In this document: positions 10,046-56,665 of the stretch, one piece after another
How the letters are laid out: each line of letters starts with the position of its first letter
Position numbering within the stretch: position 1 is the first letter of the stretch
From: Oscillospiraceae bacterium
GTDB taxonomy: Bacteria > Bacillota > Clostridia > Oscillospirales > Oscillospiraceae
Direction of reading: 5' to 3'
NCBI GenBank assembly: GCA_031261585.1
Contig: JAISJJ010000126.1
Location: forward strand, 1-63,180
Length of the DNA stretch: 63,180 bases
Translations under genes and position numbers: made by a program
The notes under the pieces: generated by a model
Seen by the model: the letters and a program-made list of their open reading frames with translations, nothing else
The model's database searches: none
Told to the model about the DNA's origin: nothing

Positions 10046-10358
10046 CAGTTGACAATTAGGACGGGAATAAGACGTGGGCAAACACCGCCGCTTGCGAGCG
10101 GCACCCCCTTTTCGAAAGGGGGCAAGGTTGGACGATGGTTGCGGAGACGCTGGAAAGCGGTCGTAGGGGCGATTAGTAATCGCCCGTCCAACGTCCAAAC
10201 GTCCTCCGTCTAAACGTCCCTCGTCCCTGCCCCCTTTCGGAAAGGGGGTGCCGTCCGCAGACGGCGGGGGTTTGCCCCGTCCATCGTCCCCCGCTCTAAC
10301 CTCTAACATCTAACCTTTGCTCGTGCCGTCCGCAGACGGCGGGGGTTTGCCCCGCTCG
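10031..10358. repeat. mosaic intergenic repeat block
   Basis: Contains TTGACAR heptamers (10031-10060), CCCCCTTTTCGAAAGGGGG and CCCCCTTTCGGAAAGGGGG palindromes, GTAGGGGCGAT..ATCGCCC (10163-10185), the heptamer run tctaacc/tctaaca/tctaacc, and a 32-nt exact direct repeat (10248-10279 = 10323-10354). Confidence 0.85.
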
Positions 10359-13660: not shown

Positions 13661-15946
13661 TTACAGCCGATTCCGCTGTATCTTTCCGTTAATCGTCTTG
13701 GGCAGTTCGTCGCGGAACACGACGATGCGCGGATATTTGTACGGCGCGGTGTGCGTTTTTACGTAGTTTTGAATCTCTTTCGCGAGTTCGTCGTTCGGCT
13801 CACGCCCGCTGTTCTTCGTCAACACGATGCTCGCCTTGACGACCTGACCGCGCACCTCGTCGGGTGCGGACGACACGCCGCATTCGAGGACGTACGGCAG
13901 TTCCATGATTACCGACTCAATCTCGAACGGTCCGATACGGTAGCCCGAGGACTTGATCACGTCGTCCACGCGTCCGACGTACCAGAAGTAGCCCTCCTCG
14001 TCGCGCCACGCCGTGTCGCCCGTGTGATAAACGCCGAATTTCCAAGCGTCGGAGGTCTTTTTGTCCTCCAGATAGTAGCCGAGGAACAGCCCCGCGGGCT
14101 TGCCGTTATCCACGCGCACGACGATCTCGCCCGTCTCACCCGACGCCACGGGGTTGCCCTCGGGGTCGATTACATCGAGTGTGTACGCGGGGTTCGCCTT
14201 GCCCATGGAGCCGATTTTCGGGGTCATGCCGACGAAGTTGCCGATCAGAATCGTCGATTCCGTCTGCCCGAAGCCCTCGTAGATCGACAGACCCGTCGCC
14301 TCCTTGAACTTGTAAAACACCTCGGGGTTCAGAGCCTCGCCCGCCGTCGTCGCGTGGCGGATACTGCTCAAATCGAACTTCGACAGATCCTCGCGGATCA
14401 GAAAACGGTAGATCGTCGGCGGCGCGCAGAACGTCGTGATGTTGTGCTTCTTGAACAGCGGCAGTACGTCGTTCGCGTCGAATCGGTCGAAATCGTACGT
14501 GAAAATCGCGCCCTCGCACAGCCATTGCCCGTACAGCTTGCCCCACAACGCCTTGCCCCAGCCCGTGTCGGAGATCGTGAAGTGGATGCCGTTCGGGTCG
14601 ACGCGGTGCCAGTAGTACGCCGTCGCGAAATGTCCGAGACCGTAGGTGTGCGAGTGCGTCACGAGTTTCGGATAGCCCGTCGTACCCGACGAGAAGAACA
14701 TGAGCATCGGGTCGTCGCCGCCCGGCGTGTCGTCCGTGCGCGGGAAGCGCGAACGGTACGTCTGGTACTCTGTGTCGAAGTCGTGCCACCCGTCAACCGC
14801 GCCGTTGCACATGACGCGCAGACGCACGTCCGTACAGTACGCCATCGCCTTTTCCGCTTCGAGATACGCGTTCGACTGCGAGGTCGTGATGATCGCGGAG
14901 ACGGAACCCGCCTTGAAGCGGTAGTCGAAGTCCTTTTCGAGCAGTTGGTCGGGCGCGGGGATCATGATCGCGCCGATTCTGTGCAGCGCGAGGACGTTCA
15001 CCCAGAACTGCCAGTTGCGTTTCAGCACGAGCATCACGTGGTCGCCCTTTTTCACGCCGAGCGACACGAGATAGTTCGCCGCGCGCGCGCTCAGCCGCGA
15101 CATGTCCTCGAACGTGAACCGACGCTCGTTGCGGTCGCGGTCGATGTGCAGCATCGCGAGCTTATCGGGCGACTTATCGGCGAGAACGTCCACCACGTCG
15201 AACGCGAAGTTGTACCGCGCCGTGTTCTTGAACCGAATCGCGAGCGGACCGCCGCTCTCGTCCTCCTCCACGTCGATGAAGTTGTTGAAGATGAGCGGCT
15301 CGTTTTTCGCGAGCGGCGTGATCGTCTCTCCGCGTGCAGAAATAGGTTCTGCGTTCTCGCCGCTTATCAGCACCGCGCAGAACACGCAGTCCGCACCGCC
15401 GACGGCGATCTCGCCGTGCGGGAAACTGCTGTTGTAGTAGATGGAGTCGCCCGCGCCGAGTACGACGCTGTGACCGCCGATCTGTACCTTGAGCTGCCCC
15501 TCCAACACGAGGTCGAACTCGTGTCCGTCGTGGCTGTGCAGTTCAATGGGCGCGGACTGCAACGCGGGGTCGAATTTGTACGTGACCCAGTGCGGCGTTG
15601 CGAGTTTGTCGCGGAACAGCGGCGCGATCTCGCGAATCTCCACGCCCGGTTCAGTCGCGGTGACGCGTCCCTCGCCGCGCCGCGTGACGGTGAAACCCGT
15701 GAGCCGCGCGGTACTCTCGCCCTCGACCAGTTCCGCCATCTCAACGCCGAAAAACTCGGCGCAGTTGCGGATAAACGAGTACGGCAGATCGACCGTACCC
15801 GACTCGAAGCGAACGTATTCCTCCTCGGAAAACCCCGTTTTCTCAGCGGTTTCCGCGGTGGTCAGATTCGCGATTTCGCGCAGTTCCCGCACGCGCGCGG
15901 CGATGCTCAAAAGGTCGGTCTGCGCGCTCTTGGCAGTCTGTTTCAT
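13661..15946 (-). CDS. fusion protein: XRE HTH + cupin + AMP-forming (medium-chain-type) acyl-CoA synthetase
   Basis: Track ORF 13661-16030; start is ATG 15946 behind GGGAGGA. N-terminus LLSIAARVRELREIANLTTAETAEKTGFSEEEYVRFESG (HTH); HSHDGHEFDLVLEGQL..GDSIYYNSSFPHG (cupin); adenylation motifs FFSSGTTGYPKLV, GFGQTES, YHTGD, GRVDDVIKSSGYRIGPFEIE, PKTINGKIQR. Confidence 0.9.
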   Translation of the reverse strand: MKQTAKSAQTDLLSIAARVRELREIANLTTAETAEKTGFSEEEYVRFESGTVDLPYSFIRNCAEFFGVEMAELVEGESTARLTGFTVTRRGEGRVTATEPGVEIREIAPLFRDKLATPHWVTYKFDPALQSAPIELHSHDGHEFDLVLEGQLKVQIGGHSVVLGAGDSIYYNSSFPHGEIAVGGADCVFCAVLISGENAEPISARGETITPLAKNEPLIFNNFIDVEEDESGGPLAIRFKNTARYNFAFDVVDVLADKSPDKLAMLHIDRDRNERRFTFEDMSRLSARAANYLVSLGVKKGDHVMLVLKRNWQFWVNVLALHRIGAIMIPAPDQLLEKDFDYRFKAGSVSAIITTSQSNAYLEAEKAMAYCTDVRLRVMCNGAVDGWHDFDTEYQTYRSRFPRTDDTPGGDDPMLMFFSSGTTGYPKLVTHSHTYGLGHFATAYYWHRVDPNGIHFTISDTGWGKALWGKLYGQWLCEGAIFTYDFDRFDANDVLPLFKKHNITTFCAPPTIYRFLIREDLSKFDLSSIRHATTAGEALNPEVFYKFKEATGLSIYEGFGQTESTILIGNFVGMTPKIGSMGKANPAYTLDVIDPEGNPVASGETGEIVVRVDNGKPAGLFLGYYLEDKKTSDAWKFGVYHTGDTAWRDEEGYFWYVGRVDDVIKSSGYRIGPFEIESVIMELPYVLECGVSSAPDEVRGQVVKASIVLTKNSGREPNDELAKEIQNYVKTHTAPYKYPRIVVFRDELPKTINGKIQRNRL

Positions 15947-15970
15947 GGAATATCCTCCCGATTGGGGCAT

Positions 15971-16253
15971 AAAAAATCCCGCCCCAAAGATGATTCTTTG
16001 AGACGAGATTTGAAAATCCCGCGGTACCACTCAAATTGCGCCTTGCACGAGGCAAGTTCGCCGCTCGCGGATCCATACAGACCCTGTCCTGTGACGGGAA
16101 CACCCGTGAACACCTACTCGCTTGCGCGTTCGGCAATTCAGGCTCGGAAGTGATGGGCTGACGTTCTCTCGCGCACCGTCTCGCACCAACCGACGGCTCT
16201 CTGGAAGCGCGGCGGAACAGCCGTCTTCGTCATAGCTTTTAGAATATTGAATT
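15971..16253 (-). promoter_or_regulatory. T-box riboswitch leader (tRNA-sensing transcription attenuator)
   Basis: Minus strand: AUGACGAAG..CUUCCGAGCC (K-turn region); AGAGAG + CCGUC-GGUUGGUGCGA-GACGG (Stem I distal); AAUUUGAGUGGUACCGCGGG (T-box). Antiterminator: UUUGAG/CUCAAA + bulge UGGUACC + GCGGGAUUU/AAAUCUCGU. Competing 17-bp terminator: AAAUCUCGUCUCAAAGA/UCUUUGGGGCGGGAUUU + U-run (15971-16011). Confidence 0.8.
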
Positions 16254-25443: not shown

Positions 25444-26517
25444 ATGGTAAAACAGAAACGCGCGTCGAGCTGCGGACTCGGCGCGAGAGATAAGCGTAAT
25501 CGCGTGACGCGGCAGGCGGTATCGCTGCTGCTCGCGCTGGTTTTTATATGCACGGCGGGCTTCGGAGCCATGGCGGTTCACGCGGAGAACCTCGTACCCG
25601 TCGGGCGTACCGTCGGTATCAGTCTCGAATCTGACGGTGTCGTCGTGGTCGGCGTACCCGAGAAATGTTCCGACGATATGACGGCTTCCCCCGCGCGCGC
25701 GGCGGGATTCAAAGCGGGCGACATCATTGTACGCCTTGGCGCGAACATTGTCAAGACCTGCCTTGATTTGAAGGATGCCACAACGCGAAACGGGGACACA
25801 AAAGTCGCCGTACACGTACTGCGCGGCGGGGTTGCGCGCCAGCTTGAAATAACGCCCGTAAAGACCGCGAACGGTGAGTTCAGTCTCGGCGTCTGGGTGC
25901 GCGACGGCATATCGGGTATCGGCACCGTGACATTCTATAACCCCGAGACGGGACAATTCGGCGCGCTCGGACACTCGGTGTCGGATTCGGAGACGGGGGT
26001 GCTGATCCCCGTGCGCTCGGGTTCGATCTCGCGCGCGTCGGTCAGCGATGTCGCAAAAGGTAAGACGGGCGCGCCGGGACAACTCCACGGGCAATTCAGC
26101 TTTGACGACAAGCTCGGCGAGGTCTTGAACAACACGCAGCACGGCATATTCGGCACGGCGCGGGGCGCGTTCGACGACGGACCCGTATTTGAGACGGCGA
26201 CGGAGAGCGAAATCCACACGGGCGACGCGTACATCCTCTCAAACGTCGCGGGTACGGAGGTGCGCCGATACACAATCGAGGTCACGCGCGTATATAAGGG
26301 CGGCGAGTCGGACGAGCGGTCGATGCTCGTCACCGTCACCGACCCCGAACTGATCGAGGCGACGGGCGGTATCGTTCAGGGCATGAGCGGCAGTCCGATC
26401 ATTCAGGACGGCAAGATTATCGGCGCGGTCACGCACGTGCTGATCAACGACCCGACGAAGGGTTACGCCACGTCGATAGAGAAGATGCTCGCGTCGGCGG
26501 TCGGCATCAACGCGTAG
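25444..26517 (+). CDS. spoIVB: SpoIVB signalling serine peptidase (S55)
   Basis: TM anchor, PDZ (AGFKAGDIIVRLG), GIGTVTFYNPETGQFGALGH, GAPG and GMSGSPIIQDGKIIGAVTHVLINDPTKGYA. Its stop overlaps the convergent NTPase gene by 11 nt. Confidence 0.9.
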   Translation: MVKQKRASSCGLGARDKRNRVTRQAVSLLLALVFICTAGFGAMAVHAENLVPVGRTVGISLESDGVVVVGVPEKCSDDMTASPARAAGFKAGDIIVRLGANIVKTCLDLKDATTRNGDTKVAVHVLRGGVARQLEITPVKTANGEFSLGVWVRDGISGIGTVTFYNPETGQFGALGHSVSDSETGVLIPVRSGSISRASVSDVAKGKTGAPGQLHGQFSFDDKLGEVLNNTQHGIFGTARGAFDDGPVFETATESEIHTGDAYILSNVAGTEVRRYTIEVTRVYKGGESDERSMLVTVTDPELIEATGGIVQGMSGSPIIQDGKIIGAVTHVLINDPTKGYATSIEKMLASAVGINA

Positions 26518-27031
26518 CGTTCAACGCGAACCGCTCACGCAACAGTTTCGGCACCTCGTCGCGGTTGTCCGCCGTGACGGTGATCACCTCGACCTGAGCG
26601 TGCGCGCGCACCGCGTCGAGGAACGGCGCGTTGCGCAGTTTGACCACGCCGTACACAGGCACGTCGCCGTCAAGCAGACGCAAAACCGCCGCTTTGAACA
26701 GCGGGGCGCGTTCCTCCATGGTGCCGAGCTCGTCCATCAAAATGAGTTCGCGTTTGCCCGAGTTCAGCAGCACCTCGGTGCCGAAACCGTCGAACACCTC
26801 GGCGTAAATTTCAAGATCGTCGCCGATTACGCGCGCGCAGGGGACATTCTCCCACTCCTCGCGCGCAATCCGCGAATCCGCGCGGTACATACTCAAAACG
26901 CGGTCGCCCTCACGCCTGTCGTACGCGGTGACGATGCCGTCGTAGTCCGCTCCGTACTCGCGCAGAAATTTATTCAGGGCGGTGGATTTGCCGATGCCGA
27001 TCTCGCCCGTCAAAAACACGTGTTTTGCCAT
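26507..27031 (-). CDS. P-loop nucleoside-triphosphatase (THEP1/NTPase_1-like)
   Basis: Track ORF 26507-27190 over-extends. ATG 27031: MAKHVFLTGEIGIGKST.., Walker B LILMDELG. Confidence 0.75.
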   Translation of the reverse strand: MAKHVFLTGEIGIGKSTALNKFLREYGADYDGIVTAYDRREGDRVLSMYRADSRIAREEWENVPCARVIGDDLEIYAEVFDGFGTEVLLNSGKRELILMDELGTMEERAPLFKAAVLRLLDGDVPVYGVVKLRNAPFLDAVRAHAQVEVITVTADNRDEVPKLLRERFALNATR

Positions 27032-27039
27032 CGCGCAAC

Positions 27040-28005
27040 CTACATTTCTACATATTTGCCCGTCTGCGACACGTCGTACGCGCCGATTGCCGCGATATCC
27101 TCGCGGAAAGCGTCCGAACCCGCGTAGTCGAGCATGACGCGCATCATCGGACGCTGCGCGTCGGACAGGCGGAACACAAAATCGTACCATTCGAGTTGCA
27201 GCGGCACAAAATCAACACCGACAGCCGTGCGCGACGCGCTCTCGCACCCGAATCCCACGTCAGCCGCACCTTTTGCGACGGCACCGACGACGGCGAGGTG
27301 TGATGTCTCCTCGCGCTCGTAGCCCGCGATTGCGGACGGCTCAATGCCGAGTTGCCGCAGTTTTTGGTCGAGCAGAATACGCGTGCCGCTGCCGCGCTCA
27401 CGCGTGACGACGGTCACGTCGGGATTGGTGAGATCGCTCCACTGCGCGATGTTTTTCGGGTTGCCCGCGCGGACGAACAGCCCCTGTTGCCGCCCCACGA
27501 GCCGCAGTACGCCGACGGGAACGCCCGGCAACAACCGTTTTATGTACGGCGTGTTGTAGGTGTCCGTCTCCGCGTCCCACATGTTCGCGGCGGACGCGGT
27601 GGTGCGCCCCGTGTACATCGCGACAAGCCCGTTGTAGCTGCCGAGATAACTGCGCAACAGCGTCGGCGAACCGCGTCTCCGTGCGGACGCCGCCTTCGCG
27701 AACAGCAGTTCAAGGCACGGGTCCTGACCCGCGACGATGATCGTGTCGCGCGCGTCGCGCCGAAACGACGTGCGGTTCACGTCGGCGGGCGGTTCGGGTC
27801 GCGACTCCTGACGCGCCTCGGCACCTGCGGGCAGACTGCCGACTTTTTTCGAGCCGATATACGCGTCGAGGTCAGCCTGCGCCACGCGCACCTGCTTGCC
27901 GACCTTGGACGACGGCAGTTCACCGCGCCGAATCAGCGCGTAAACGGTCGTACGGTTGAGATTGAGCCGCTCGGCTATCTCGGCGGGGGAGAGAAATTCA
28001 CTCAA
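27040..28005 (-). CDS. transcriptional regulator: excisionase/MerR-like HTH + PBP-like (oxyanion-type) ligand-binding domain
   Basis: TTG start overlapping the DUF364 stop (ATTGA). LSPAEIAERLNLNRTTVYALIRRGELPSSKVGKQVRV, then a ~230-aa periplasmic-binding-protein-like domain (..VVTRERGSGTRILLDQKL..). Confidence 0.8.
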   Translation of the reverse strand: MSEFLSPAEIAERLNLNRTTVYALIRRGELPSSKVGKQVRVAQADLDAYIGSKKVGSLPAGAEARQESRPEPPADVNRTSFRRDARDTIIVAGQDPCLELLFAKAASARRRGSPTLLRSYLGSYNGLVAMYTGRTTASAANMWDAETDTYNTPYIKRLLPGVPVGVLRLVGRQQGLFVRAGNPKNIAQWSDLTNPDVTVVTRERGSGTRILLDQKLRQLGIEPSAIAGYEREETSHLAVVGAVAKGAADVGFGCESASRTAVGVDFVPLQLEWYDFVFRLSDAQRPMMRVMLDYAGSDAFREDIAAIGAYDVSQTGKYVEM

Positions 28006-28775
28006 TGCGCAGCACCTAAATCAACTTTCCGCAGATTTACCTTTTGTCCGACGGCGTGCATCTTGCCGCCGCTGCCGAGGGAGATATCGCGCGCGGCGTT
28101 GCCGTCACGCACGGCGAAACCCGCGATATCGTCGATGCCGAACGCGTGCAGAATCGGCGTGACGGGGCAGGCGGGACCGACGAGCGTCACATGCGCGTTT
28201 TTCGAGAGTTCCAGAAAACGCGGCAGCGACTTCTCGACGAGGGTATACGTGGAGATCAGCACAAAATCGCTCACGGGCAACAGATAATCCGCCGCCTGTT
28301 CGGGATAATCGCCGTCTTTCGGGTTGAATTTCTCGATGATCGAGCAGTTCGACACGGGGGTGAAGAGCTGGTCGATGTACGGAAAATGCCCGATGACCGT
28401 GACGTTTTTGTCACGCACCTCGCGCTGCAACTGGATAAACGGGTCGTTCGCGCGATCCTCGTACCCCTTGTGTTCCGCGATGTTCAGACCGAGCGCGCGC
28501 AGTTTGTCGAGGTCGTTGTAGTAAGCGTTGATAGCCGCGAGAGCCAGTTCCGCCTCGACGAAATCCCACGATTTGATGCACTCCGCGAGCTCGCGCAACG
28601 GCATACCGATGTGCTTGTGCGGCAGCATGGCAGAACGCCACGTGTCCTCCATCGAGCTGCAAATCCCGACGCCGTTACCCGAGCGCACATACGCGTGGTT
28701 CGCGCCGAGAATATAGTCGTCGGCAAGCGCGTTCTCGTCGATGCCGTCAAGCAGCGCGTCATACAGTTCCCACAT
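28002..28775 (-). CDS. DUF4213/DUF364 protein (Rossmann-like, putative metal-chelation domain)
   Basis: MWELYDALLDGI..ILGANHAYVRSGNGVGICSS..ELALAAINAYYN..VTVIGHFPYI..VLISTYTLVEKSLPRFL..VTLVGPACP is the typical family layout (recollection). Confidence 0.8.
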   Translation of the reverse strand: MWELYDALLDGIDENALADDYILGANHAYVRSGNGVGICSSMEDTWRSAMLPHKHIGMPLRELAECIKSWDFVEAELALAAINAYYNDLDKLRALGLNIAEHKGYEDRANDPFIQLQREVRDKNVTVIGHFPYIDQLFTPVSNCSIIEKFNPKDGDYPEQAADYLLPVSDFVLISTYTLVEKSLPRFLELSKNAHVTLVGPACPVTPILHAFGIDDIAGFAVRDGNAARDISLGSGGKMHAVGQKVNLRKVDLGAAH

Positions 28776-28833
28776 AGATTAAGTCTCCTGTTCTGCAACA
28801 ATTTTCGGGGTTTTGCGCACGTTTCGCGGTTTG

Positions 28834-28967
28834 TGTAGGGATCGATTGGGCGATTGATAATCGCCCCTGCGGTTCTGCCCCGCAACCCACGTCCAACCCC
28901 ACCCCCTTTCGGAAAGGGGGTGCCGACCGCAGTCGGCGGGGGTTTGTTCCCTCGTCCAACTCTCGTC
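28834..28967. repeat. mosaic repeat inserted inside the metal operon
   Basis: GGGCGATTGATAATCGCCC hairpin, CCCCCTTTCGGAAAGGGGG palindrome, GCCGACCGCAGTCGGCGG palindrome, ggtttgttccctcgtcc tail. The same modules occur at 10229-10280 and 45750-45805. Confidence 0.85.
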
Positions 28968-28978
28968 GCGTGCGGTAT

Positions 28979-29980
28979 CTATTCCAGCCGTTCCCCCGAG
29001 CGCAATTTCGCCCTTGCGTCAGATAACTGCCTGTCAATCCGCTCAAATTCCGCCGCGGCTTCACGTTCACGCGGCGAGGTCTCGATGACGCGGAAGATAC
29101 CGCCGTTTTTGATCACAATGCGCCTGTCCGCACCGAGCGCGAGCAGGGGGTCGTGCGTCGAGATCAGCACAATCTTCTCGCGTTTTGCCAGAATCGCGAC
29201 GGCGGCGCGGCGGTCAACACCCGCGTTCTCAATCTCGTCGATCAGCACGATCGGGCTTTGCGAGATGAACGCGCAATCTGCTATCATCAGCGCGCGGGAC
29301 TGACCGCCCGACAACTGCGTGACCTTTGTGTCGCTGCCGAACGACTCGCCCGCGAGCGAATTTGCGCACTCAAAGCACTCGCGCAACACGGTCTCGTCTG
29401 TCTCGATACTGCGCGACCGCGCGTGCATCTCGAGAAACTCCATGACGGACAGATCCATGACGAAATTCATGTTCTGCGACAACTGCGCGACGAGTTTGCC
29501 CTCGAGCGTGAATCGCTCGTCCTCGGGCACGGCGGCACCGTCGATCAGCACGCGCCGAGCCGTCGGCGTGTCGCCCTGCGCCAGACACTCAATGTCGGCG
29601 AGCAGGCGCGATTTGCCGCTGCCCGTGGGTCCGACGATGCTCACGACGCTGCCGGGGAGAATGTCGAGCGTGATATCCTCGGGCGCGCCGTTCTTGTCCG
29701 TGCCGCCGATGATGGTCAGGCAACCGATACTCCGCGCGGGTTCCGATTCGGTCATCGTGCCGAGAAACGACGCGAGTTGGTCGGCGATCTCCTGCCGCGT
29801 GATGCCAAATTCGTCGAGCCATTGCGCGTCCACGTCCATAAGCGCGTCCGGCAGGGGTTGCGATTCGTCGAGCGGAGGGATATTCAGATTCTCGAAAAAG
29901 TCCTGCGCGACGGGATATCTTTCACGCAGTTCCGACAGCGGAACGGTGTAGATTAAATCGTAAAAATCCGTGTTATTCAA
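28979..29980 (-). CDS. soluble ABC-type ATPase with a ~100-aa N-terminal extension (no membrane domain)
   Basis: TTG start. GPTGSGKSRLL (Walker A), LSGGQSRALMIA (signature), IVLIDEIENAGVD (Walker B), STHD (H-loop). Confidence 0.8.
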   Translation of the reverse strand: MNNTDFYDLIYTVPLSELRERYPVAQDFFENLNIPPLDESQPLPDALMDVDAQWLDEFGITRQEIADQLASFLGTMTESEPARSIGCLTIIGGTDKNGAPEDITLDILPGSVVSIVGPTGSGKSRLLADIECLAQGDTPTARRVLIDGAAVPEDERFTLEGKLVAQLSQNMNFVMDLSVMEFLEMHARSRSIETDETVLRECFECANSLAGESFGSDTKVTQLSGGQSRALMIADCAFISQSPIVLIDEIENAGVDRRAAVAILAKREKIVLISTHDPLLALGADRRIVIKNGGIFRVIETSPREREAAAEFERIDRQLSDARAKLRSGERLE

Positions 29981-29989
29981 GTCAACGTC

Positions 29990-30670
29990 CTATATATCGT
30001 ATTCTATATGCCGCATCATGCCCATCTGGTAGCCCTCGCCTATGCGCGTCTCGCCCGTGCAGTAGGCGCAGGCGGCGGCGGGGGTCGTGAAACGCAGACG
30101 CGTGTCGGTCAATGTCGTGATCGTGTGCGCGCTCTCCGCGACTTTGCCGAGCATGAACGCGCCCTGACCCGTTATACCGTTCACAAACAGGATTTTCGCG
30201 TCGCCGTTCGCCTGTTTCACGCTCCAAGAGAACACCTCGCGCTCCGCCTGAGACACGATATCGCCCTTGGTGACGACGACGACGTCCGCGAATTTCAGCA
30301 TCGGACCGATCTTGCGCGGTGTGTGTACACCCGACAGACAGTCAATCACGCACACGGACAGTACGCCAGAGATGTGCGGACTGCAACGGTTGCACAGCCC
30401 AGCGGACTCGGTAACGAGATAGTCGAGATCGCGGCGCAGACCCCACAGGACACCGCCCTCGACGTTGTTTACAAAGAAATGGTCGGGGCAGAACTTGCCT
30501 GAAAACCCGACTTGAACGGGGACATTTGCGGCGTCATACCGCGCCTTGTCGAAGCTCGTGAGGCAGTCGAACTTGACCACCCCGAGTTTGCCGCCGAGAC
30601 TCTCGGCAAGGCGCAGTATAACGGACGTTTTCCCCGATGACGGCGGTCCCGCCACGGTGATGAGTTTCAT
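29990..30670 (-). CDS. G3E-family P-loop GTPase (HypB/UreG/CobW-like metallochaperone)
   Basis: VAGPPSSGKTS (G1), LVTESAGLCNRCSPH (ExxG + Cys pair), VVTKGD (NKxD-like), and a C-terminal CAYCTGE motif. The ATG abuts the SBP stop (TAAATG). Confidence 0.8.
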   Translation of the reverse strand: MKLITVAGPPSSGKTSVILRLAESLGGKLGVVKFDCLTSFDKARYDAANVPVQVGFSGKFCPDHFFVNNVEGGVLWGLRRDLDYLVTESAGLCNRCSPHISGVLSVCVIDCLSGVHTPRKIGPMLKFADVVVVTKGDIVSQAEREVFSWSVKQANGDAKILFVNGITGQGAFMLGKVAESAHTITTLTDTRLRFTTPAAACAYCTGETRIGEGYQMGMMRHIEYDI

Positions 30671-31840
30671 TTAGTGTGCTTGTGCGGGGATAAAGGAGTT
30701 CGCTGTCAGCGCGTGATAACCCTCATCGGAGAGGTCGTAGCCGTAGAACAGCTCATAGTAATCCGTGATCTCGGCTTGCAGGTCAAAGCTCACATAGTCG
30801 GGGTACAGCACGTTGAGCAGCAGCAGCACGCTCAGGTAACGCTGAATCGACGGGGGACCGCCGAACCAGTTGTACGGACCCTGCGGGATTTCAAAGTAGT
30901 TGCCGCTCTTAACAGCGTCGAGATCAGCCCACAGCGGGTCTGTCGCGACCTCGGCGTAGTAGCTGTTCGGCGCGAAGATGATGTATTCGGGGTTCCAGAG
31001 GTAGATCTGTTCGAGGTCTGTCTCGTTGCCGCTGCCCTTGGACGACGGCGATTCGACGACTGCGATATTGTTCGTGAGATAGTCGAGAACCTCGGCGTGG
31101 AACGAGGTGAACGGTATCACGTTTGTGCCGAGATCGCCCGTGAGGTACAGCACGTCGACCTTGTTGTCGCCGATAGCGGTGACTGCGGTGTCGGCGAGTT
31201 CCAGCACGTGTTCGATGTACAGCGCGAGTTCTTCGCCACGCGCTTCACGGTTGAGGATTTTGCCGAGTTCGCGGAACGCGTTCGCCGCGCCCTGTTTGCC
31301 GTCCTCTTGACGGAGGAACGCCGTGATGTGGATTGTCGGGATATTTACCGCGTTCTGGATATTGTCCATGTCCTCGGCTATCGTCTTTTTCGGCTCGCCG
31401 AGGTCGATGATGATCTGCGGGTCAATCGCGGCGAGTTCTTCGAGGTTCAGATCGTCCGAACCGTAGAACTGACCGACTTCGGGCAGGTCATTAAGGTATG
31501 ACGGCAGATATTTTGCGTTGTCGCCCTTGTACGGCGACGCGATTGTGACCATCAGGTCGGGGGCAATCGCCACGAGGAACATCTGGGCGAGCGCGCCAGA
31601 CGCTGAGATGCGCGTGATCTTGCCGGGCAGGGTCACTTCACGACCCGCCGAGTCGGTGTAAACCCAATCGGCAGCGGGTTCGGGCGGATCTTCGGACGGG
31701 TTCTCAGACGGTTGCTCCGACGGCGAGACGTCGGGCGTGGGCGACGCTGCGGGGTCTTTCGCGGGGCTGCACCCTGCGAACAGGGACATCGCGAGGACGA
31801 GCGCGAGCAGTAATGCGAGCAGTTTCTTCGTGTTTTTCAT
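30671..31840 (-). CDS. ABC substrate-binding lipoprotein, cluster-A/FecB-BtuF type
   Basis: Lipobox LFAGC. Pro/Glu/Ser-rich linker. Class III PBP body typical of siderophore/haem/cobalamin binders. Confidence 0.85.
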   Translation of the reverse strand: MKNTKKLLALLLALVLAMSLFAGCSPAKDPAASPTPDVSPSEQPSENPSEDPPEPAADWVYTDSAGREVTLPGKITRISASGALAQMFLVAIAPDLMVTIASPYKGDNAKYLPSYLNDLPEVGQFYGSDDLNLEELAAIDPQIIIDLGEPKKTIAEDMDNIQNAVNIPTIHITAFLRQEDGKQGAANAFRELGKILNREARGEELALYIEHVLELADTAVTAIGDNKVDVLYLTGDLGTNVIPFTSFHAEVLDYLTNNIAVVESPSSKGSGNETDLEQIYLWNPEYIIFAPNSYYAEVATDPLWADLDAVKSGNYFEIPQGPYNWFGGPPSIQRYLSVLLLLNVLYPDYVSFDLQAEITDYYELFYGYDLSDEGYHALTANSFIPAQAH

Positions 31841-31909
31841 GGTACTCCCTTTTCGTTTTTATTTGTGTATCGCGTATTTCAGAAAGCGGTTGTAATCCGC
31901 TATTGCTGA

Positions 31910-32683
31910 CTAAAATATCGGCTGCACCGACGTAACACCGTCGACGTGGCGCAGTTTTGCGCGTATGCCGTACAGAGCTTCGATCATAGGCTCGTCGAGC
32001 GTCTCGTCGGGCGTTCCGAACGCGGCGACGGCACCGTCGACCATCGCGAGCACCTGATCCGCGAACATGAACGCGTGGTCGGGGTTGTGCGTACTCTGCA
32101 CGACGGTCAGACCCTCGCGCGCGAGGTCGCGCACCTGTTTCAGCACGCGCAGACCGTTGCCGTAGTCGAGACTGGCGGTCGGCTCGTCCATGATGACGAC
32201 GCTCGCCTGCTGCGCCAACGCGCGCGCGATCAGCGTCAGTTGCCGCTCACCGCCCGATATGCGCAGATACCCGCGATCACGCAGATGCAGTATGCCGACG
32301 CGTTCGAGAGACTGCTCCGTCACCGCGATCTGCGCCTCACGCGGCGAGTTGAGCAGTCCGACGCGCGCCGTGGTACCCATCAGCACCATGTCGAACACGC
32401 TGTAATTGAACGACGGCGAGTGCGACTGCGGCACGTACGCGATCTGTTGCGCGAGTTGGCGCGGAGAGATGCTGCGTATCGGCTTGCCGCCGAGCGTAAT
32501 CTCGCCGCGATACCGCGTCTCCAATCCGAGCATACAGCGGAACAGCGTACTCTTGCCCACGCCGTTCGGACCCAGTACCGCGAGCATCTGCCCGACGGGT
32601 GCGTCAAAGCTCACGTCGCGCAGGACATCGTGCGTACCGTACGAGAACGACAGGTTGCGCACGGACAGCATATTTTCGCTCAT
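31910..32683 (-). CDS. ABC transporter ATP-binding protein (FecE/BtuD type)
   Basis: GPNGVGKST, ISGGERQLTLIARAL, VVIMDEPTASLD. Confidence 0.9.
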   Translation of the reverse strand: MSENMLSVRNLSFSYGTHDVLRDVSFDAPVGQMLAVLGPNGVGKSTLFRCMLGLETRYRGEITLGGKPIRSISPRQLAQQIAYVPQSHSPSFNYSVFDMVLMGTTARVGLLNSPREAQIAVTEQSLERVGILHLRDRGYLRISGGERQLTLIARALAQQASVVIMDEPTASLDYGNGLRVLKQVRDLAREGLTVVQSTHNPDHAFMFADQVLAMVDGAVAAFGTPDETLDEPMIEALYGIRAKLRHVDGVTSVQPIF

Positions 32684-33777
32684 ATCTCCTCACGCTCCCG
32701 TGTGATCATCCAGATGAAGAACGGCGCGCCGATGATCGCGGTCAGTATGCCTATCGGTATCTCCGTAGGCAGGAGGTTGCGCGAGAAGTTGTCGACAATC
32801 AGCAGGAACAGCGCGCCGCCGACCATCGATGCGGGCATCAGATGGCGGTAGTTACTGCCGACGAGCCTCCGCATCAAATGCGGCACGACGAGACCGACCC
32901 AGCCGATAAGTCCCGATATGGACACGCTCGCCGCCGTAACGAGCGTCGCGCAGACGATCACGAGAAACCGCACTTTTCCGACGGACACGCCCATCGTGCG
33001 CGCCTCGTCGTCGGACAGCGTGAGCAGATTTATGCGCCAGCGTATCAGCAGCAGGGGTATCAGCCCGACGAGCATCGGGATAATCGCGAGTTTTACGCTC
33101 GCTATGCGCGTTTTTGCGAGCGAACCCATCATCCAGTACGTTATCTCGGGCAGAATATTGTTCGGGTCGGCGACGAGTTTGATGAACGACGTGACGGCGT
33201 TGCACAGCGACGACACCATTATGCCCGCGAGAATGATGCGCAAAACCTGACTGCCGCGCGCGACGCGTGAGATGAGCATCACGAGCGTGATTGTGATTAA
33301 ACTCGCACCGAACGCGAACAGCATGACCATGCGCGAGCCGAGTTGCAGCAGTATCGCGAGTGCGGCACCCATCGCGGCACCCGCCGACGCGCCGAGTATG
33401 TCGGGCGACGCCATGGGGTTCTGAAAAACGCCCTGATACGCGGCTCCCGCCGACGACAGACAGCACCCGACGAGACACGACAGGACGATGCGCGGGAACC
33501 GCACGTTCCACAGTATCGCGTTCGTCGTCGCGGACACCTCGGGTATGTTGATCTGCTGCTTGAATATCGGGATCAGCGCGCGGTTCAGCAACCCCGCGAG
33601 TTTCGCCCACACCGCCGCGAGCAGTTCGGGCGGCTTGATCGGGTATCGCCCGATCGCGAACGAGACGAACAGAGCGGCGATGACGAGCGCGCCGATAACG
33701 GCGATGACAAGCGAGTGCGCGCGGTTTTTCGACCGCTCAATCGCGTTTTGTTCAGCTTTTATTCCGCGCACCGTCAT
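32680..33777 (-). CDS. FecCD/BtuC-family ABC permease
   Basis: 365 aa, 9-10 TM; RFPRIVLSCLVG, GASAGAAMGAAL, GIPFFIW-like C-terminus. 4-nt overlaps on both sides. Confidence 0.9.
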   Translation of the reverse strand: MTVRGIKAEQNAIERSKNRAHSLVIAVIGALVIAALFVSFAIGRYPIKPPELLAAVWAKLAGLLNRALIPIFKQQINIPEVSATTNAILWNVRFPRIVLSCLVGCCLSSAGAAYQGVFQNPMASPDILGASAGAAMGAALAILLQLGSRMVMLFAFGASLITITLVMLISRVARGSQVLRIILAGIMVSSLCNAVTSFIKLVADPNNILPEITYWMMGSLAKTRIASVKLAIIPMLVGLIPLLLIRWRINLLTLSDDEARTMGVSVGKVRFLVIVCATLVTAASVSISGLIGWVGLVVPHLMRRLVGSNYRHLMPASMVGGALFLLIVDNFSRNLLPTEIPIGILTAIIGAPFFIWMITREREEI

Positions 33778-34640
33778 CTCTCGTCCCGAACGCGCGTGTC
33801 CCAGAGTATGAACCCGTAGCGGTACACGGATTCACGCGTCGCCGCGCCGTTGCGCTCCAACCACTGTAAAACCTTGGCGGTGTCGTCGTCGGATTCGCGC
33901 CCGCACAGATCGGCGAGACGCTGAGCGTCGCGGAGTGTCGGCGCGTATGTTTCGCTGCGCTCGTCGGCATAATAGTACGTCTCGGGGTAGTACCCTCGGT
34001 GCCACAGCAGATTCACCAGCGCGTAAAACCCGTCGCCCGAGAAGCGCGACGGCGATGTTGAGCCGAACACCTCGCGCATGACGCGCGGGGTCAGCGAATC
34101 TGACGTGTTCGCGAACGAGCAGTTGCAGCAGAACGCGCGCGACATGCGTATGAGCTTGTCGAGACAGCCGCGCCCCGTGCTCGCGGGCGTGATCGACGTG
34201 AACACGAGGTCGAATTGCCCGACCAAGCCCGCCGCGTCAATGTCGAACGTCAGAAAATCCTCCGCGCGGAACGACGTGTTCGTCAACCCGCGCGCGGCGC
34301 ATATCTCGCGCCCGTACTCGACGAAGCGTCGGGAGAAGTCGATACCGAGCGCGTATTTCGCGCTTTCCGCGAACTCAGCGACGAACAGACCGGGACCGCA
34401 GCCCACATCGGCGACGGAATCGCCCGCGCCGAGCAGTCCGCGCCCGCGCAGATACGCGGAGGTCGTGCCGACGCGTTCGAGCATATTCTGTTTGCCGCCT
34501 GATTCAATGCCGCGAATCCACTCCTCGGCGCGCTCGTCCCACGTCTCCGCCGACACCGCGGATTTACCGGGGCGGGAACGCGACGCCCATTGACCCTCAA
34601 AATACTCGCGGAGATTGAACGCACCGTCGCTCTCGCCCAT
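33774..34640 (-). CDS. class I SAM-dependent methyltransferase
   Basis: Motif I VADVGCGPG, acidic loop GIDFS, FDLVFTS. First gene of the operon. Confidence 0.8.
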   Translation of the reverse strand: MGESDGAFNLREYFEGQWASRSRPGKSAVSAETWDERAEEWIRGIESGGKQNMLERVGTTSAYLRGRGLLGAGDSVADVGCGPGLFVAEFAESAKYALGIDFSRRFVEYGREICAARGLTNTSFRAEDFLTFDIDAAGLVGQFDLVFTSITPASTGRGCLDKLIRMSRAFCCNCSFANTSDSLTPRVMREVFGSTSPSRFSGDGFYALVNLLWHRGYYPETYYYADERSETYAPTLRDAQRLADLCGRESDDDTAKVLQWLERNGAATRESVYRYGFILWDTRVRDER

Positions 34641-34704
34641 ACGTCACCGTCCAAAAACTGATATATTATCGTTTGTTGCTGTTTGTTGTTGTTTTGTTAA
34701 CGAC

Positions 34705-34733
34705 ATAATACACTATTACGGGACAAAAATCAA
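34705..34733 (-). promoter_or_regulatory. sigma-A promoter candidate for the metal operon
   Basis: Minus strand TTGATT (34733-34728), 17 nt, TATTAT (34710-34705), followed by a CA-rich leader. Confidence 0.4.
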
Positions 34734-45180: not shown

Positions 45181-45832
45181 ACCTGTCATTCAGAGCACCC
45201 CCCCTGTCATTCTGAGCACCCCCCTGTCATTCTGAGCGAAGCGAAGAATCCCCTTGATTTTCGATTAATCTCGCGACGTGCGTCGCAGACGATGCTCTGC
45301 GTTTCGATAGCTTGTCCGCGCTCGCCGCGCGGCGTTACTTTCCGTCGGGGGAAAGTAACCAAAGCCCGTTGGAGGGAACGCACCGCGCCGTTATCGCTTC
45401 CGTGAGACGCGAGAACGGCAGCGGCGGCGATGGTGGGCAAAAATCGCGAGTTCCTTTAACCGAGGACGACAGTATTGCGGAGTTCGCATCTCATCACTCC
45501 AAAACCAATAGTTTCTGCTTCGCTAAGGCGAGAAAACTGCGTCACGTCACGCTAAAAGACACTGCGGTTCGTTTTGCTGCCGCCCTGCGGTGCGTTTCAG
45601 GGGCTTGGTTCTCTCGCGCGTGTATCGGTTTGTGTAGGGGCGACCCTATGTGGTCGCCCTGTTGGGCTATGCGAAATCCTTACGGGCGACCAATGGTCGC
45701 CCCTACGGCGCGTTATCCGACGCAATCCGCAACCCCCGTCCAACCCTTGCCCCCTTTCGAAAAGGGGTGCCGACCGCAGTCGGCGGTGTTTGTTTCCCTC
45801 GTCCCCAACTGTTCATTAGTTAATTGTTAACT
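45181..45832. repeat. ~650-bp mosaic repeat block (left member of an inverted pair with 56041-56665)
   Basis: Three tandem cctgtcattcNgagcacccc units (45181-45240). Module X (45222-45367) and module Y (45541-45708) are reverse-complement matches of 56473-56615 and 56161-56328. Also CCCCCTTTCGAAAAGGGG, GCCGACCGCAGTCGGCGG and a heptamer tail. Confidence 0.85.
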
Positions 45833-56040: not shown

Positions 56041-56665
56041 TGGCGGCAAAGCTAAACCGAAGCGGACGGGGAACAAATACCGCCGACTGCGGTCGGCGAC
56101 GGCAGATAACAGATAACGGATATCAGATAACAGATACGGACGGGAGTTGCGGGACAGTGCCGTAGGGGCGACCATTGGTCGCCCGTCGAGGTTGTTCGCG
56201 CCACAACAGGGCGACCACGCAGGGTCGCCCCTACACAAACCACAACACGTGAGCGGGAACCAAGACCCTGCCACGCACCAATGTGCGGCAGCGAAACGAG
56301 CCGCAGTGTCTTTTGATGTGACGTGACTTGTCAATTAACAATTAACAATGAACAATTAACAGTTTCGAGGGTTTGGACGAGAGCTGCGGGAAACGTAAAT
56401 GAGTTAGGGTAGCGGTCAATCCAAGCCCCCCGTAATTGTTAATTGTCAATTGTTCATTGTTAATTGCCATCGCGGGCTTTGGTTACTTTCTCCCGAAAGA
56501 AAGTAACGCCGCGCGGCGAGCGCGGACAGAGTTGCGAAACGCAGAGAATCGCCTGCGGTGAAGCCGCAAGATGAATCGGCAATTGAGGGGATTCTTCGCT
56601 TCGCTCAGAATGACAGAGAACAGCAGGGGCGATGCGGACATCGCCCCCTACGAGGACGCGAGACG
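56041..56665. repeat. ~625-bp mosaic repeat block (right member of the inverted pair with 45181-45832)
   Basis: CCGCCGACTGCGGTCGGCG palindrome; CAGATAA heptamers (56103-56136); module Y' (56161-56328); a heptamer-armed composite palindrome (56331-56468); module X' (56473-56615); GGGGCGATgcggacATCGCCCCCTAC hairpin. Confidence 0.85.

Follow-up and report, generated by a model that had tools for sequence, protein, structure and literature searches.

A putative molybdate/tungstate operon that pairs a G3E-class GTPase with a soluble ABC ATPase in an Oscillospiraceae bacterium

A 63,180-nucleotide stretch of an Oscillospiraceae genome (GenBank assembly GCA_031261585.1, contig JAISJJ010000126.1; the whole stretch is hereafter the window) encodes nine co-directional genes that combine a type II ATP-binding cassette (ABC) importer with a G3E-class GTPase, a soluble ABC ATPase, a DUF364 protein, a methyltransferase, a regulator and a THEP1-like NTPase (Table 1). 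A preliminary description, made from the sequence alone, saw here an import-plus-insertion or processing pathway for a metal or metallocofactor that corresponds to no described system. That view holds, and riboswitches, ModE-type regulators and mod, moe and nif neighbours tie the pathway to molybdenum (Mo) or tungsten (W), a link in which we have high confidence. The interpretation that we favour, and consider probable, is a molybdate/tungstate acquisition-and-delivery operon that is induced by a shortage of the metal or of its pyranopterin cofactor. Importer and regulator both belong to known kinds; the new element is the module formed by the GTPase and the soluble ABC ATPase with a DUF364 or SBP_bac_6 protein, a candidate G3E metallochaperone system whose partner and metal context are both new.

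Conservation of the GTPase–ABC pair

A scan of one genome per species returned at least 438 related loci, of which 80 were fetched and ten more were added from contig look-ups; 89 loci including the window were compared by tblastn and clustering of open reading frames (ORFs). Below, L numbers denote these loci, P numbers denote database proteins, and neighbours are features within 10 kb of the soluble ABC gene. The G3E GTPase gene is present in 86 of the 89 loci, in nearly all of them directly upstream of the soluble ABC gene. A third partner accompanies the pair in 76 loci, namely DUF364 (30 loci), a cytoplasmic SBP_bac_6 protein (48) or both (2). The conserved unit is the GTPase and the soluble ABC ATPase plus DUF364 or SBP_bac_6. 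A FecCD or Peripla_BP_2 importer gene occurs in 36 loci, the class I methyltransferase gene in 23 and the THEP1-like NTPase gene, at the end of the cluster, in 14. The preliminary description had singled out a quartet of GTPase, ABC ATPase, DUF364 and helix-turn-helix (HTH) regulator for a check of co-occurrence; the pair with DUF364 or SBP_bac_6 stands, and the regulator, found at full length in three of the 89 loci, is the least conserved part. All eight non-regulator genes occur together on six independent contigs (L005, L018, L081, L083, L084 and L087), which, with the near-universal pairing of GTPase and ABC genes, argues that the arrangement is not due to chance.

The pair is widespread among bacteria (Clostridia, Negativicutes, Spirochaetes, Desulfuromonadales/Geobacter, Desulfobacterota, Chlorobi and Ignavibacteria) and is also found in archaea (Methanomicrobiales, Methanosarcina and Bathyarchaeota). 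The GTPase family is compact: at E <= 1e-3, a search of 1.84 billion cluster representatives recovered 392 members, counted at 50% identity.

The GTPase and the soluble ABC ATPase

The GTPase shares with known G3E metallochaperones (UreG, HypB, MeaB and COG0523/CobW/ZigA) a P-loop (GPPSSGKT), the ExxG-type G3 motif ESAG, the NKxD-type G4 motif TKGD and a Cys-Pro-(Asp)-His motif; ESAG is fully conserved in the family and the other GTPase motifs mostly so. The Cys pairs of ESAGLCNRC and of the C terminus, which had been noted in the preliminary description, are genuinely conserved: at least 95% of 79 orthologues keep most of the P-loop, C61-P-D-H64, C93xxC96 within ESAGLCNRC, KGD and C201xxC204, so that the putative metal-binding Cys/His motifs are retained across the family. 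C61-P-D-H64 lies at the position of the CPH nickel site of UreG. Its matches in the PDB, to UreG and HypB, reach only E ~1e-6, and the protein falls far below the curated models for hypB (40.5 versus 121.2 bits) and ureG (28.6 versus 204.2 bits). Its sequence contains neither the CxCC motif (LCNRC being CxxC) nor the C-terminal domain of COG0523. Judged by these comparisons, it is a G3E protein outside the HypB, UreG and COG0523 subfamilies and belongs to an undescribed subfamily. Unlike the known metallochaperones, it has additional CxxC motifs (LCNRC and C-terminal), has a soluble ABC ATPase as its regular partner, to which it is sometimes fused, and occurs in a context of Mo, W or nif, not of Ni, Co, Zn or B12.

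The soluble ABC ATPase is tightly conserved, with 57-70% identity over the full length including the N-terminal extension, and its Walker A and B motifs, Q-loop, LSGGQ signature and H-loop are intact. An AlphaFold2 model with a predicted local distance difference test score (pLDDT) of 89 consists of six short N-terminal helices and an ordinary nucleotide-binding domain, for which Foldseek returned only generic matches, with SmsC and SufC-type ATPases among the structural neighbours. The gene adjoins that of the GTPase rather than that of a permease, and the importers in the 36 loci come with their own ATPase; judged by gene context, the protein is not a membrane-transporter ATPase with a permease of its own. 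Its N-terminal extension has no match in Pfam, and none in the PDB by profile search. The SBP_bac_6 partner has a DUF1858-like N terminus (2FI0, E 8e-6), and hhalign aligned the extension to it with an E-value of 4e-4 and a probability of only 35%, so the two are possibly related.

Fusions of the GTPase to the ABC ATPase were recovered in a search of representative proteins as P0231 (613 aa) and P0233 (509 aa). Their halves are 43-55% identical to the corresponding window proteins, and the ABC part of P0233 has no helical N-terminal extension. The existence of such natural fusions suggests, by the Rosetta-stone argument, that the GTPase and the ABC ATPase act together. ABC ORFs of 468-615 aa that also appeared to be fusions were discarded as spurious upstream extensions in high-GC DNA, without a G3E motif.

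A chaperone role for the pair is plausible, if a little short of probable. The induction presumed for the operon, by limitation of its presumed metal, is shared with Zur-regulated COG0523 proteins, and by this analogy the delivery system would correspond to the COG0523 chaperones induced under zinc limitation. A review of NTPase metallochaperones from 2022 recognises only four G3E subfamilies (PMC9164220), and none dedicated to Mo or W appears in that review or in PMC11672702. More tentatively, the pair with DUF364 or SBP_bac_6 could be a fifth G3E metallochaperone branch, serving the group-5/6 oxyanion metals (Mo, W and perhaps V). The GTPase and ABC subfamilies, the SBP_bac_6 partner and DUF364 all lack an NCBIfam model, and we found no description of the module in curated libraries or the searchable literature. 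Functionally it may resemble SufBC2D/SmsCB and NifQ/NifEN-NifH, in which a soluble ABC-type or P-loop NTPase and a scaffold or carrier build or load a metallocluster, and modules of the window type do occur in nif clusters; SufB/D, NifQ and NifEN are, however, not homologous to its components.

Regulators and genomic context

Three loci that share the gene order of the window (L005, L081 and L084) carry a riboswitch for the molybdenum or tungsten cofactor (Moco/Tuco), RF01055, directly upstream of their first gene, which encodes the methyltransferase. All three aptamers retain the P3 stem, which Regulski et al. (2008, PMC2408646) link to Moco and not to Tuco, and thereby favour Mo in these relatives. 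The operons thus resemble members of the Moco/Tuco regulon in their control, whereas the gene set of the window lies outside the classes described for it (molybdate transporters, Moco biosynthesis and Moco-dependent enzymes; PMC2408646). The window itself contains no RF01055 element, its sole Rfam match being one tRNA, and the operon leader of ~65 nt is too short to hold a riboswitch. Rfam scans at gathering thresholds detected no cobalamin, NiCo or other transition-metal riboswitch in the window and 48 related loci; one M-box was found elsewhere in L026, and only RF01055 recurred.

A second Moco riboswitch in L005 (3957-4112, minus strand, 47.8 bits) faces the opposite direction and lies ~195 nt upstream of a gene for a surface-repeat protein exceeding 1250 aa, which one would not expect behind such a riboswitch. 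Between both aptamers is a small flavoprotein-like gene (4295-4873), recognised by inspecting its sequence by eye.

The window regulator joins HTH_17 to PBP_like (PF12727), an architecture that the preliminary description associated with Mo/W sensing; it is indeed that of TaoR, a tungstate-responsive regulator (PMC11980592, PMC12327845). In Desulfovibrio, TaoR controls aor and tup, as cited from Rajeev et al. (2019) in PMC10102598, PMC11980592 and PMC12327845. The likeness drawn here is one of domain architecture; the window regulator differs in lying inside the operon that it presumably controls and in its target genes. It matches the PBP-like C terminus of archaeal MoeA (NF011068) with 182 bits. 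We presume that it is the molybdate/tungstate sensor of the operon. The sister loci lack a regulator of this architecture and have the Moco riboswitch in its place. In the window, the TaoR-type regulator and the gut-type lineage would be compatible with W as well. TunR combines a ModE-like sensor with a XerC/D-like DNA-binding domain. It was considered as a match for the regulator and set aside, as TaoR fits (PMC11980592).

Genes for ModA, ModB, ModE, ModD, MoeA or HTH_17-TOBE regulators lie near the pair in 22 loci, with modABC among the neighbours, and nitrogenase genes (NifH, NifDK, NifB and NifV) in 11. The bathyarchaeotal L012 has the order NifH-NifB-NifD-NifK-NifV-GTPase-ABC-DUF364, and in L038 the importer and methyltransferase genes are embedded between nifH and nifDK-like genes. 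In Methanosarcina sp. T3 (L074) the order is FecCD-ABC-PBP2-PBP2-SBP6-GTPase-ABC-NifV-NifV (SBP6 being SBP_bac_6), and the ModE box ATTATGTTTGTTTGAACACAAC occurs at the start of the FecCD gene with four matches on both strands (two sites), where 0.14 were expected. A nearly identical site precedes M. acetivorans ma1234-1224 and is bound by ModE in an electrophoretic mobility shift assay (PMC12327845). From the syntenic L074, the ma1234-1224 cluster appears to contain the SBP6-GTPase-ABC trio.

The nif-like genes of L034 (17013-20753) and L038 (1888-9265) encode NifH and NifD/NifK-like proteins that score 261-367 bits against a curated nifD/nifK cut-off of 653. The FecCD importer and the methyltransferase stand in or beside these NifDK-like clusters, which may encode uncharacterised nitrogenase-like enzymes.

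A gene for hybrid cluster protein adjoins the SBP6-GTPase-ABC trio in L057, L059, L065, L066, L069, L073 and L076, which are of Desulfuromonadales type or from some Clostridia. It is mostly divergent and upstream, an 80-aa Zn-ribbon protein often follows, and L059 has a Crp-family regulator too.

The importer

The permease, its ATPase and the lipoprotein substrate-binding protein (SBP) form a putative type II importer of the MolBC-A kind. In the PDB the permease is closest to MolB (HI1471, 2NQ2; 206.6 bits), with a modest lead over FhuB (192) and HmuU (190) and with BtuC at 130. A profile of the SBP family (alignment A2) matched MolA (HI1472, 3PSA/3PSH) over the full length with 105 bits (E 2e-29), whereas siderophore, haem and B12 binding proteins all scored at most 66 bits. 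MolBC-A of H. influenzae (HI1470/HI1471/HI1472) is a type II ABC importer for molybdate and tungstate (PMC4031551, PMC4245157). It consists, like the window system, of a FecCD/BtuC-fold permease and a Peripla_BP_2-type SBP, and among solved proteins with a defined ligand its parts are the closest to the window permease and SBP. What had seemed an odd pairing in the preliminary description, an oxyanion sensor beside a chelate-type importer, therefore has a precedent and is not anomalous (PMC4031551).

Expression of MolBC-A is Mo-responsive (PMC4031551), and the window operon may respond to Mo or W as well, to judge from its TaoR-type regulator, the RF01055 riboswitches of three syntenic loci and the ModE box of L074. 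The two systems also differ: the identity of the window SBP to MolA is low, and three PDB entries are closer; and the Haemophilus papers describe molABC only, with no GTPase, soluble ABC, DUF364 or methyltransferase partner. That the imported species is an oxyanion is likely, if far from certain, on these comparisons.

Ordinary uptake of a corrinoid, haem, siderophore or Ni/Co, with a Co/Ni chaperone of the CobW or HypB kind, is very improbable. The permease and importer ATPase do have NCBIfam matches to BtuC and to corrinoid and haem ATPases, all far below the curated cut-offs, and the nearest solved relatives of the GTPase are Ni chaperones. BtuF-type proteins, however, score no more than 28 bits against the SBP profile, the scanned loci are devoid of cobalamin and NiCo riboswitches, and annotation of the neighbours by ORF clustering and Pfam turned up no hydrogenase, urease or cobalamin gene.

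We also think it unlikely that the operon supplies iron in step with demand for the Mo/W cofactor, in which case the importer would take up an iron chelate, Mo/W regulation would only coordinate iron supply, and the GTPase and a SufC-like ABC ATPase would handle Fe or Fe-S for Mo/W enzymes, nitrogenases and hybrid cluster protein. FecCD systems controlled by Tuco riboswitches or ModE do appear as iron transporters in the annotation of the Adams and Lessner groups, and higher cellular Fe has been reported in E. limosum (PMC11725836, PMC12327845). E. limosum FetABC1, behind a Tuco riboswitch, is however up-regulated under W limitation, which fits a W scavenger more simply (PMC11725836). SBP_bac_6 is a family of Fe(III)-binding proteins such as SfuA, with a weak match here, and the structural neighbours of the soluble ABC ATPase and the genes for hybrid cluster protein would also suit iron, as would the Cys-rich GTPase. 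Its CxxC motifs resemble the ligands of Fe-S carriers. Against iron stand the lead of MolA over iron-chelate binding proteins and of MolB among permeases, the methyltransferase homologue beside a Moco biosynthesis operon (see below), and neighbours such as ModABC, ModD, ModE and MoeA, among which no iron regulator or siderophore gene was seen.

DUF364 and the methyltransferase

The DUF364 protein carries both Pfam domains of Dhaf4260 (PDB 3L5O) and matches it with an E-value of 8.5e-71. In the window lineage it makes up the third part of the cytosolic module. Compared with Dhaf4260 (PMC2954201), the pocket residues G37, N83, G129-H130 and E148 are kept, whereas G39, R42 and T133 are changed. 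E148 has been proposed to contact the ribose of an adenosyl ligand (PMC2954201). An association of DUF364 with Mo, W and V transport genes was already known (PMC2954201) and is confirmed here; in M. maripaludis, a DUF364 gene in the modABC operon is cofit with nifH (bioRxiv 10.1101/2024.03.05.583561). The only characterised DUF364 enzyme, Orf5, acts on a derivative of S-adenosylmethionine (SAM), cyclising methylated SAM to methyl-azetidine carboxylate (PMC12930334). Its setting differs in that the substrate is 4''-methyl-SAM and the natural-product pathway includes a B12-radical SAM partner, which is lacking in the operon (PMC12930334).

The methyltransferase has a C-terminal domain specific to its family, which is small and comprises 109 proteins, most of them from Oscillospiraceae. 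Its AlphaFold2 model (pLDDT 90) retrieved only generic small-molecule methyltransferases with Foldseek (TM ~0.5). The thiol S-methyltransferases TmtA and GtmA were rejected as a guide to its substrate, standing at TM ~0.5 among hundreds of near-equal matches. A 45%-identical homologue in L089 (9001-14486) stands alone upstream of a Moco-like riboswitch (41.7 bits with a covariance model of our own) and of the operon moeA-mog-mobB-moaA-moaC-MOSC. This context, in which the transporter plays no part, would tie the methyltransferase family to the pyranopterin cofactor.

These two proteins raise the possibility, which we rate as slight, that DUF364 and the methyltransferase make a 'molybdophore' or 'tungstophore', that the importer takes up the metal-chelate and that the NTPases release or process it. 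Azetidine and aminocarboxypropyl chemistry underlies metallophores of the nicotianamine type. The chemistry of Orf5, the retention of E148, the recurrence of the methyltransferase in 23 loci and the usual cargo of type II importers, which is bulky chelates, would fit such a scheme. The operon, however, has no exporter or further biosynthetic genes; SBP_bac_6 replaces DUF364 in 48 loci and most importer-bearing loci are without DUF364; DUF364 also occurs in plain modABC operons (bioRxiv 10.1101/2024.03.05.583561); and the pocket residues G39 and R42 are changed.

L045 (4985-6805) and L051 (1635-3419) encode a ~600-aa fusion of a radical SAM domain to a cytoplasmic Peripla_BP_2 domain. The gene lies between those of the methyltransferase and of the SBP6-GTPase-ABC trio and adjoins modABC, and it is a hint that some versions of the system may process an organic substrate.

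Proposed function

We hypothesize that scarcity of Moco/Tuco or of the oxyanion would derepress the operon through the TaoR-type regulator, the Moco riboswitch taking this part in sister genomes. The importer would then scavenge molybdate or tungstate. In the cytosol, the GTPase and the soluble ABC ATPase would form one two-NTPase machine, together with DUF364 or, in other lineages, SBP_bac_6, which would capture the metal on the Cys/His sites of the GTPase and could hand it to cofactor assembly, either to MoeA for Moco/Tuco or, in diazotrophs, to the nitrogenase cofactor pathway. The methyltransferase and the THEP1-like NTPase would be accessory.

Several observations weigh against this molybdate/tungstate interpretation. 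Mo or nif markers occur within 10 kb in a union of only 29 of the 89 loci, and RF01055 in three of the 48 loci scanned with Rfam. In seven loci the module adjoins a gene for hybrid cluster protein, which is not a Mo enzyme; the Mo/W model leaves this unexplained. The only PDB entries that score above MolA against the SBP profile (4PAG, 4OVK and 4HN9) bear no ligand-specific name, two being 'Periplasmic binding protein' and one a generic 'iron complex transport' protein, and comparable importers are labelled 'Fe ABC transporters' in published work (PMC11725836, PMC12327845). The fusions P0231 and P0233 are metagenome gene calls known from protein entries alone. Finally, the conserved methyltransferase and DUF364 suggest that a small organic molecule is also involved.

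If the molybdate/tungstate interpretation is correct, the module would provide a missing step of metal trafficking in the cytoplasm of anaerobic bacteria and archaea, one that supplies MoeA and, in diazotrophs, also the nitrogenase cofactor pathway. To our knowledge, the intracellular routing of scarce molybdate and tungstate, including the allocation of Mo versus W, is an open question, as is the supply of the heterometal to nitrogenase cofactors in organisms without NifQ. The GTPase–ABC pair is a concrete and widely conserved candidate, present in at least ten bacterial and archaeal lineages and in genera with genetically tractable species (Methanosarcina, Geobacter and Acetobacterium). On the same interpretation, the 'Fe ABC transporters' encoded behind Tuco riboswitches or ModE boxes would import Mo/W in the manner of MolBC-A; fetABC1/2 of E. 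limosum (PMC11725836) and ma1234-1224 and ma1200-1197 of M. acetivorans (PMC12327845) may be such importers. This would alter how the economy of Mo and W is understood, both for the gut microbiome and for anaerobic nitrogen fixation.

Organisation of the window locus

The gene layout given in the preliminary description agrees with the ORF list of the window: nine minus-strand ORFs at the coordinates in Table 1, with all of the proposed protein families confirmed by Pfam and NCBIfam searches. Overlaps of 4 nt join the methyltransferase to the permease gene, the permease to the importer ATPase gene and the DUF364 to the regulator gene, and the stop codon of the SBP gene directly abuts the ATG of the GTPase gene. 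Gaps of 9 nt (GTPase to soluble ABC), 203 nt (soluble ABC to DUF364) and 8 nt (regulator to NTPase) were likewise as described; a further gap of 69 nt separates the importer ATPase and SBP genes. The soluble ABC and regulator genes start with TTG, and the NTPase_1 ORF is open to 27190, with homology beginning only at the ATG at 27031. The repeat that had been noticed in the 203-nt spacer is GC-rich and REP-like (RNA fold z-score -2.6), and it has further copies in the window at 10060-10350, 45727-45804 and 56064-56097; it is not specific to the Mo/W system.

Table 1. Operon genes and associated features of the window, with the riboswitch aptamers of three related loci
Feature	Sequence	Position	Strand	Evidence or remark
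Class I SAM-dependent methyltransferase	window	33774-34640	-	Pfam Methyltransf_31/25
FecCD permease, type II (FecCD/BtuC-fold), MolB-like	window	32680-33777	-	FecCD 292 bits
Importer ATPase	window	31910-32683	-	ABC_tran 106 bits; gene overlaps permease gene by 4 nt
Lipoprotein SBP	window	30671-31840	-	Peripla_BP_2; lipobox LFAGC
G3E-class GTPase	window	29990-30670	-	cobW (PF02492) 42.8 bits, cut-off 20.7
Soluble ABC ATPase, 333 aa	window	28979-29980	-	ABC_tran residues 101-249, after ~95-100-aa N-terminal extension
Spacer, 203 nt, dispersed hairpin-forming intergenic repeat	window	28776-28978	-	Repeat and RNA fold comparison
DUF4213 + DUF364 protein	window	28002-28775	-	Pfam 92.1 and 61.6 bits
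HTH_17 + PBP_like regulator	window	27040-28005	-	HTH_17 55.7 bits (4-51); PBP_like (PF12727) 210.5 bits (111-294)
THEP1-like NTPase (NTPase_1), accessory P-loop protein	window	26507-27031	-	88.6 bits
Promoter-like site TTGATT-17-TATTAT, ~65 nt upstream of methyltransferase gene	window	34705-34733	-	Consensus scan only
AhtL-like Mo/W bis-pyranopterin oxidoreductase, outside operon	window	1639-4383	+	Pfam Molybdopterin, Molydop_binding, AhtL-like_1st
RF01055 aptamer	L005	4943-5104		42.8 bits
RF01055 aptamer	L081	5171-5328		62.6 bits
RF01055 aptamer	L084	2616-2767		55.6 bits

Other genes of the window and related loci

The molybdoenzyme at 1639-4383, previously suggested as a conceivable client, is assigned by Pfam to the Mo/W bis-pyranopterin oxidoreductases. 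In L085 a homologue is encoded 2.3 kb downstream of ABC-DUF364-NTPase_1, and the window enzyme is a possible client of the operon.

A SpoIVB-like ORF (translation inspected by eye) and DpaA in the window indicate a sporulating host of the Clostridium type, to which metagenome-assembled genomes of Oscillospiraceae are most closely related. The window also encodes an unusual 789-aa fusion of HTH_31/HTH_19, cupin and AMP-binding enzyme domains (13661-16030, minus strand), of which a homologue in L086 (1-1067) lies a few kb from the GTPase-ABC-DUF364 module. In L081, an intergenic segment of 142 nt (14082-14223, minus strand), remote from rRNA operons, aligns to a discontinuous portion of the model for bacterial small-subunit rRNA with 56 bits and may be an rRNA-mimicking leader or a chance match.

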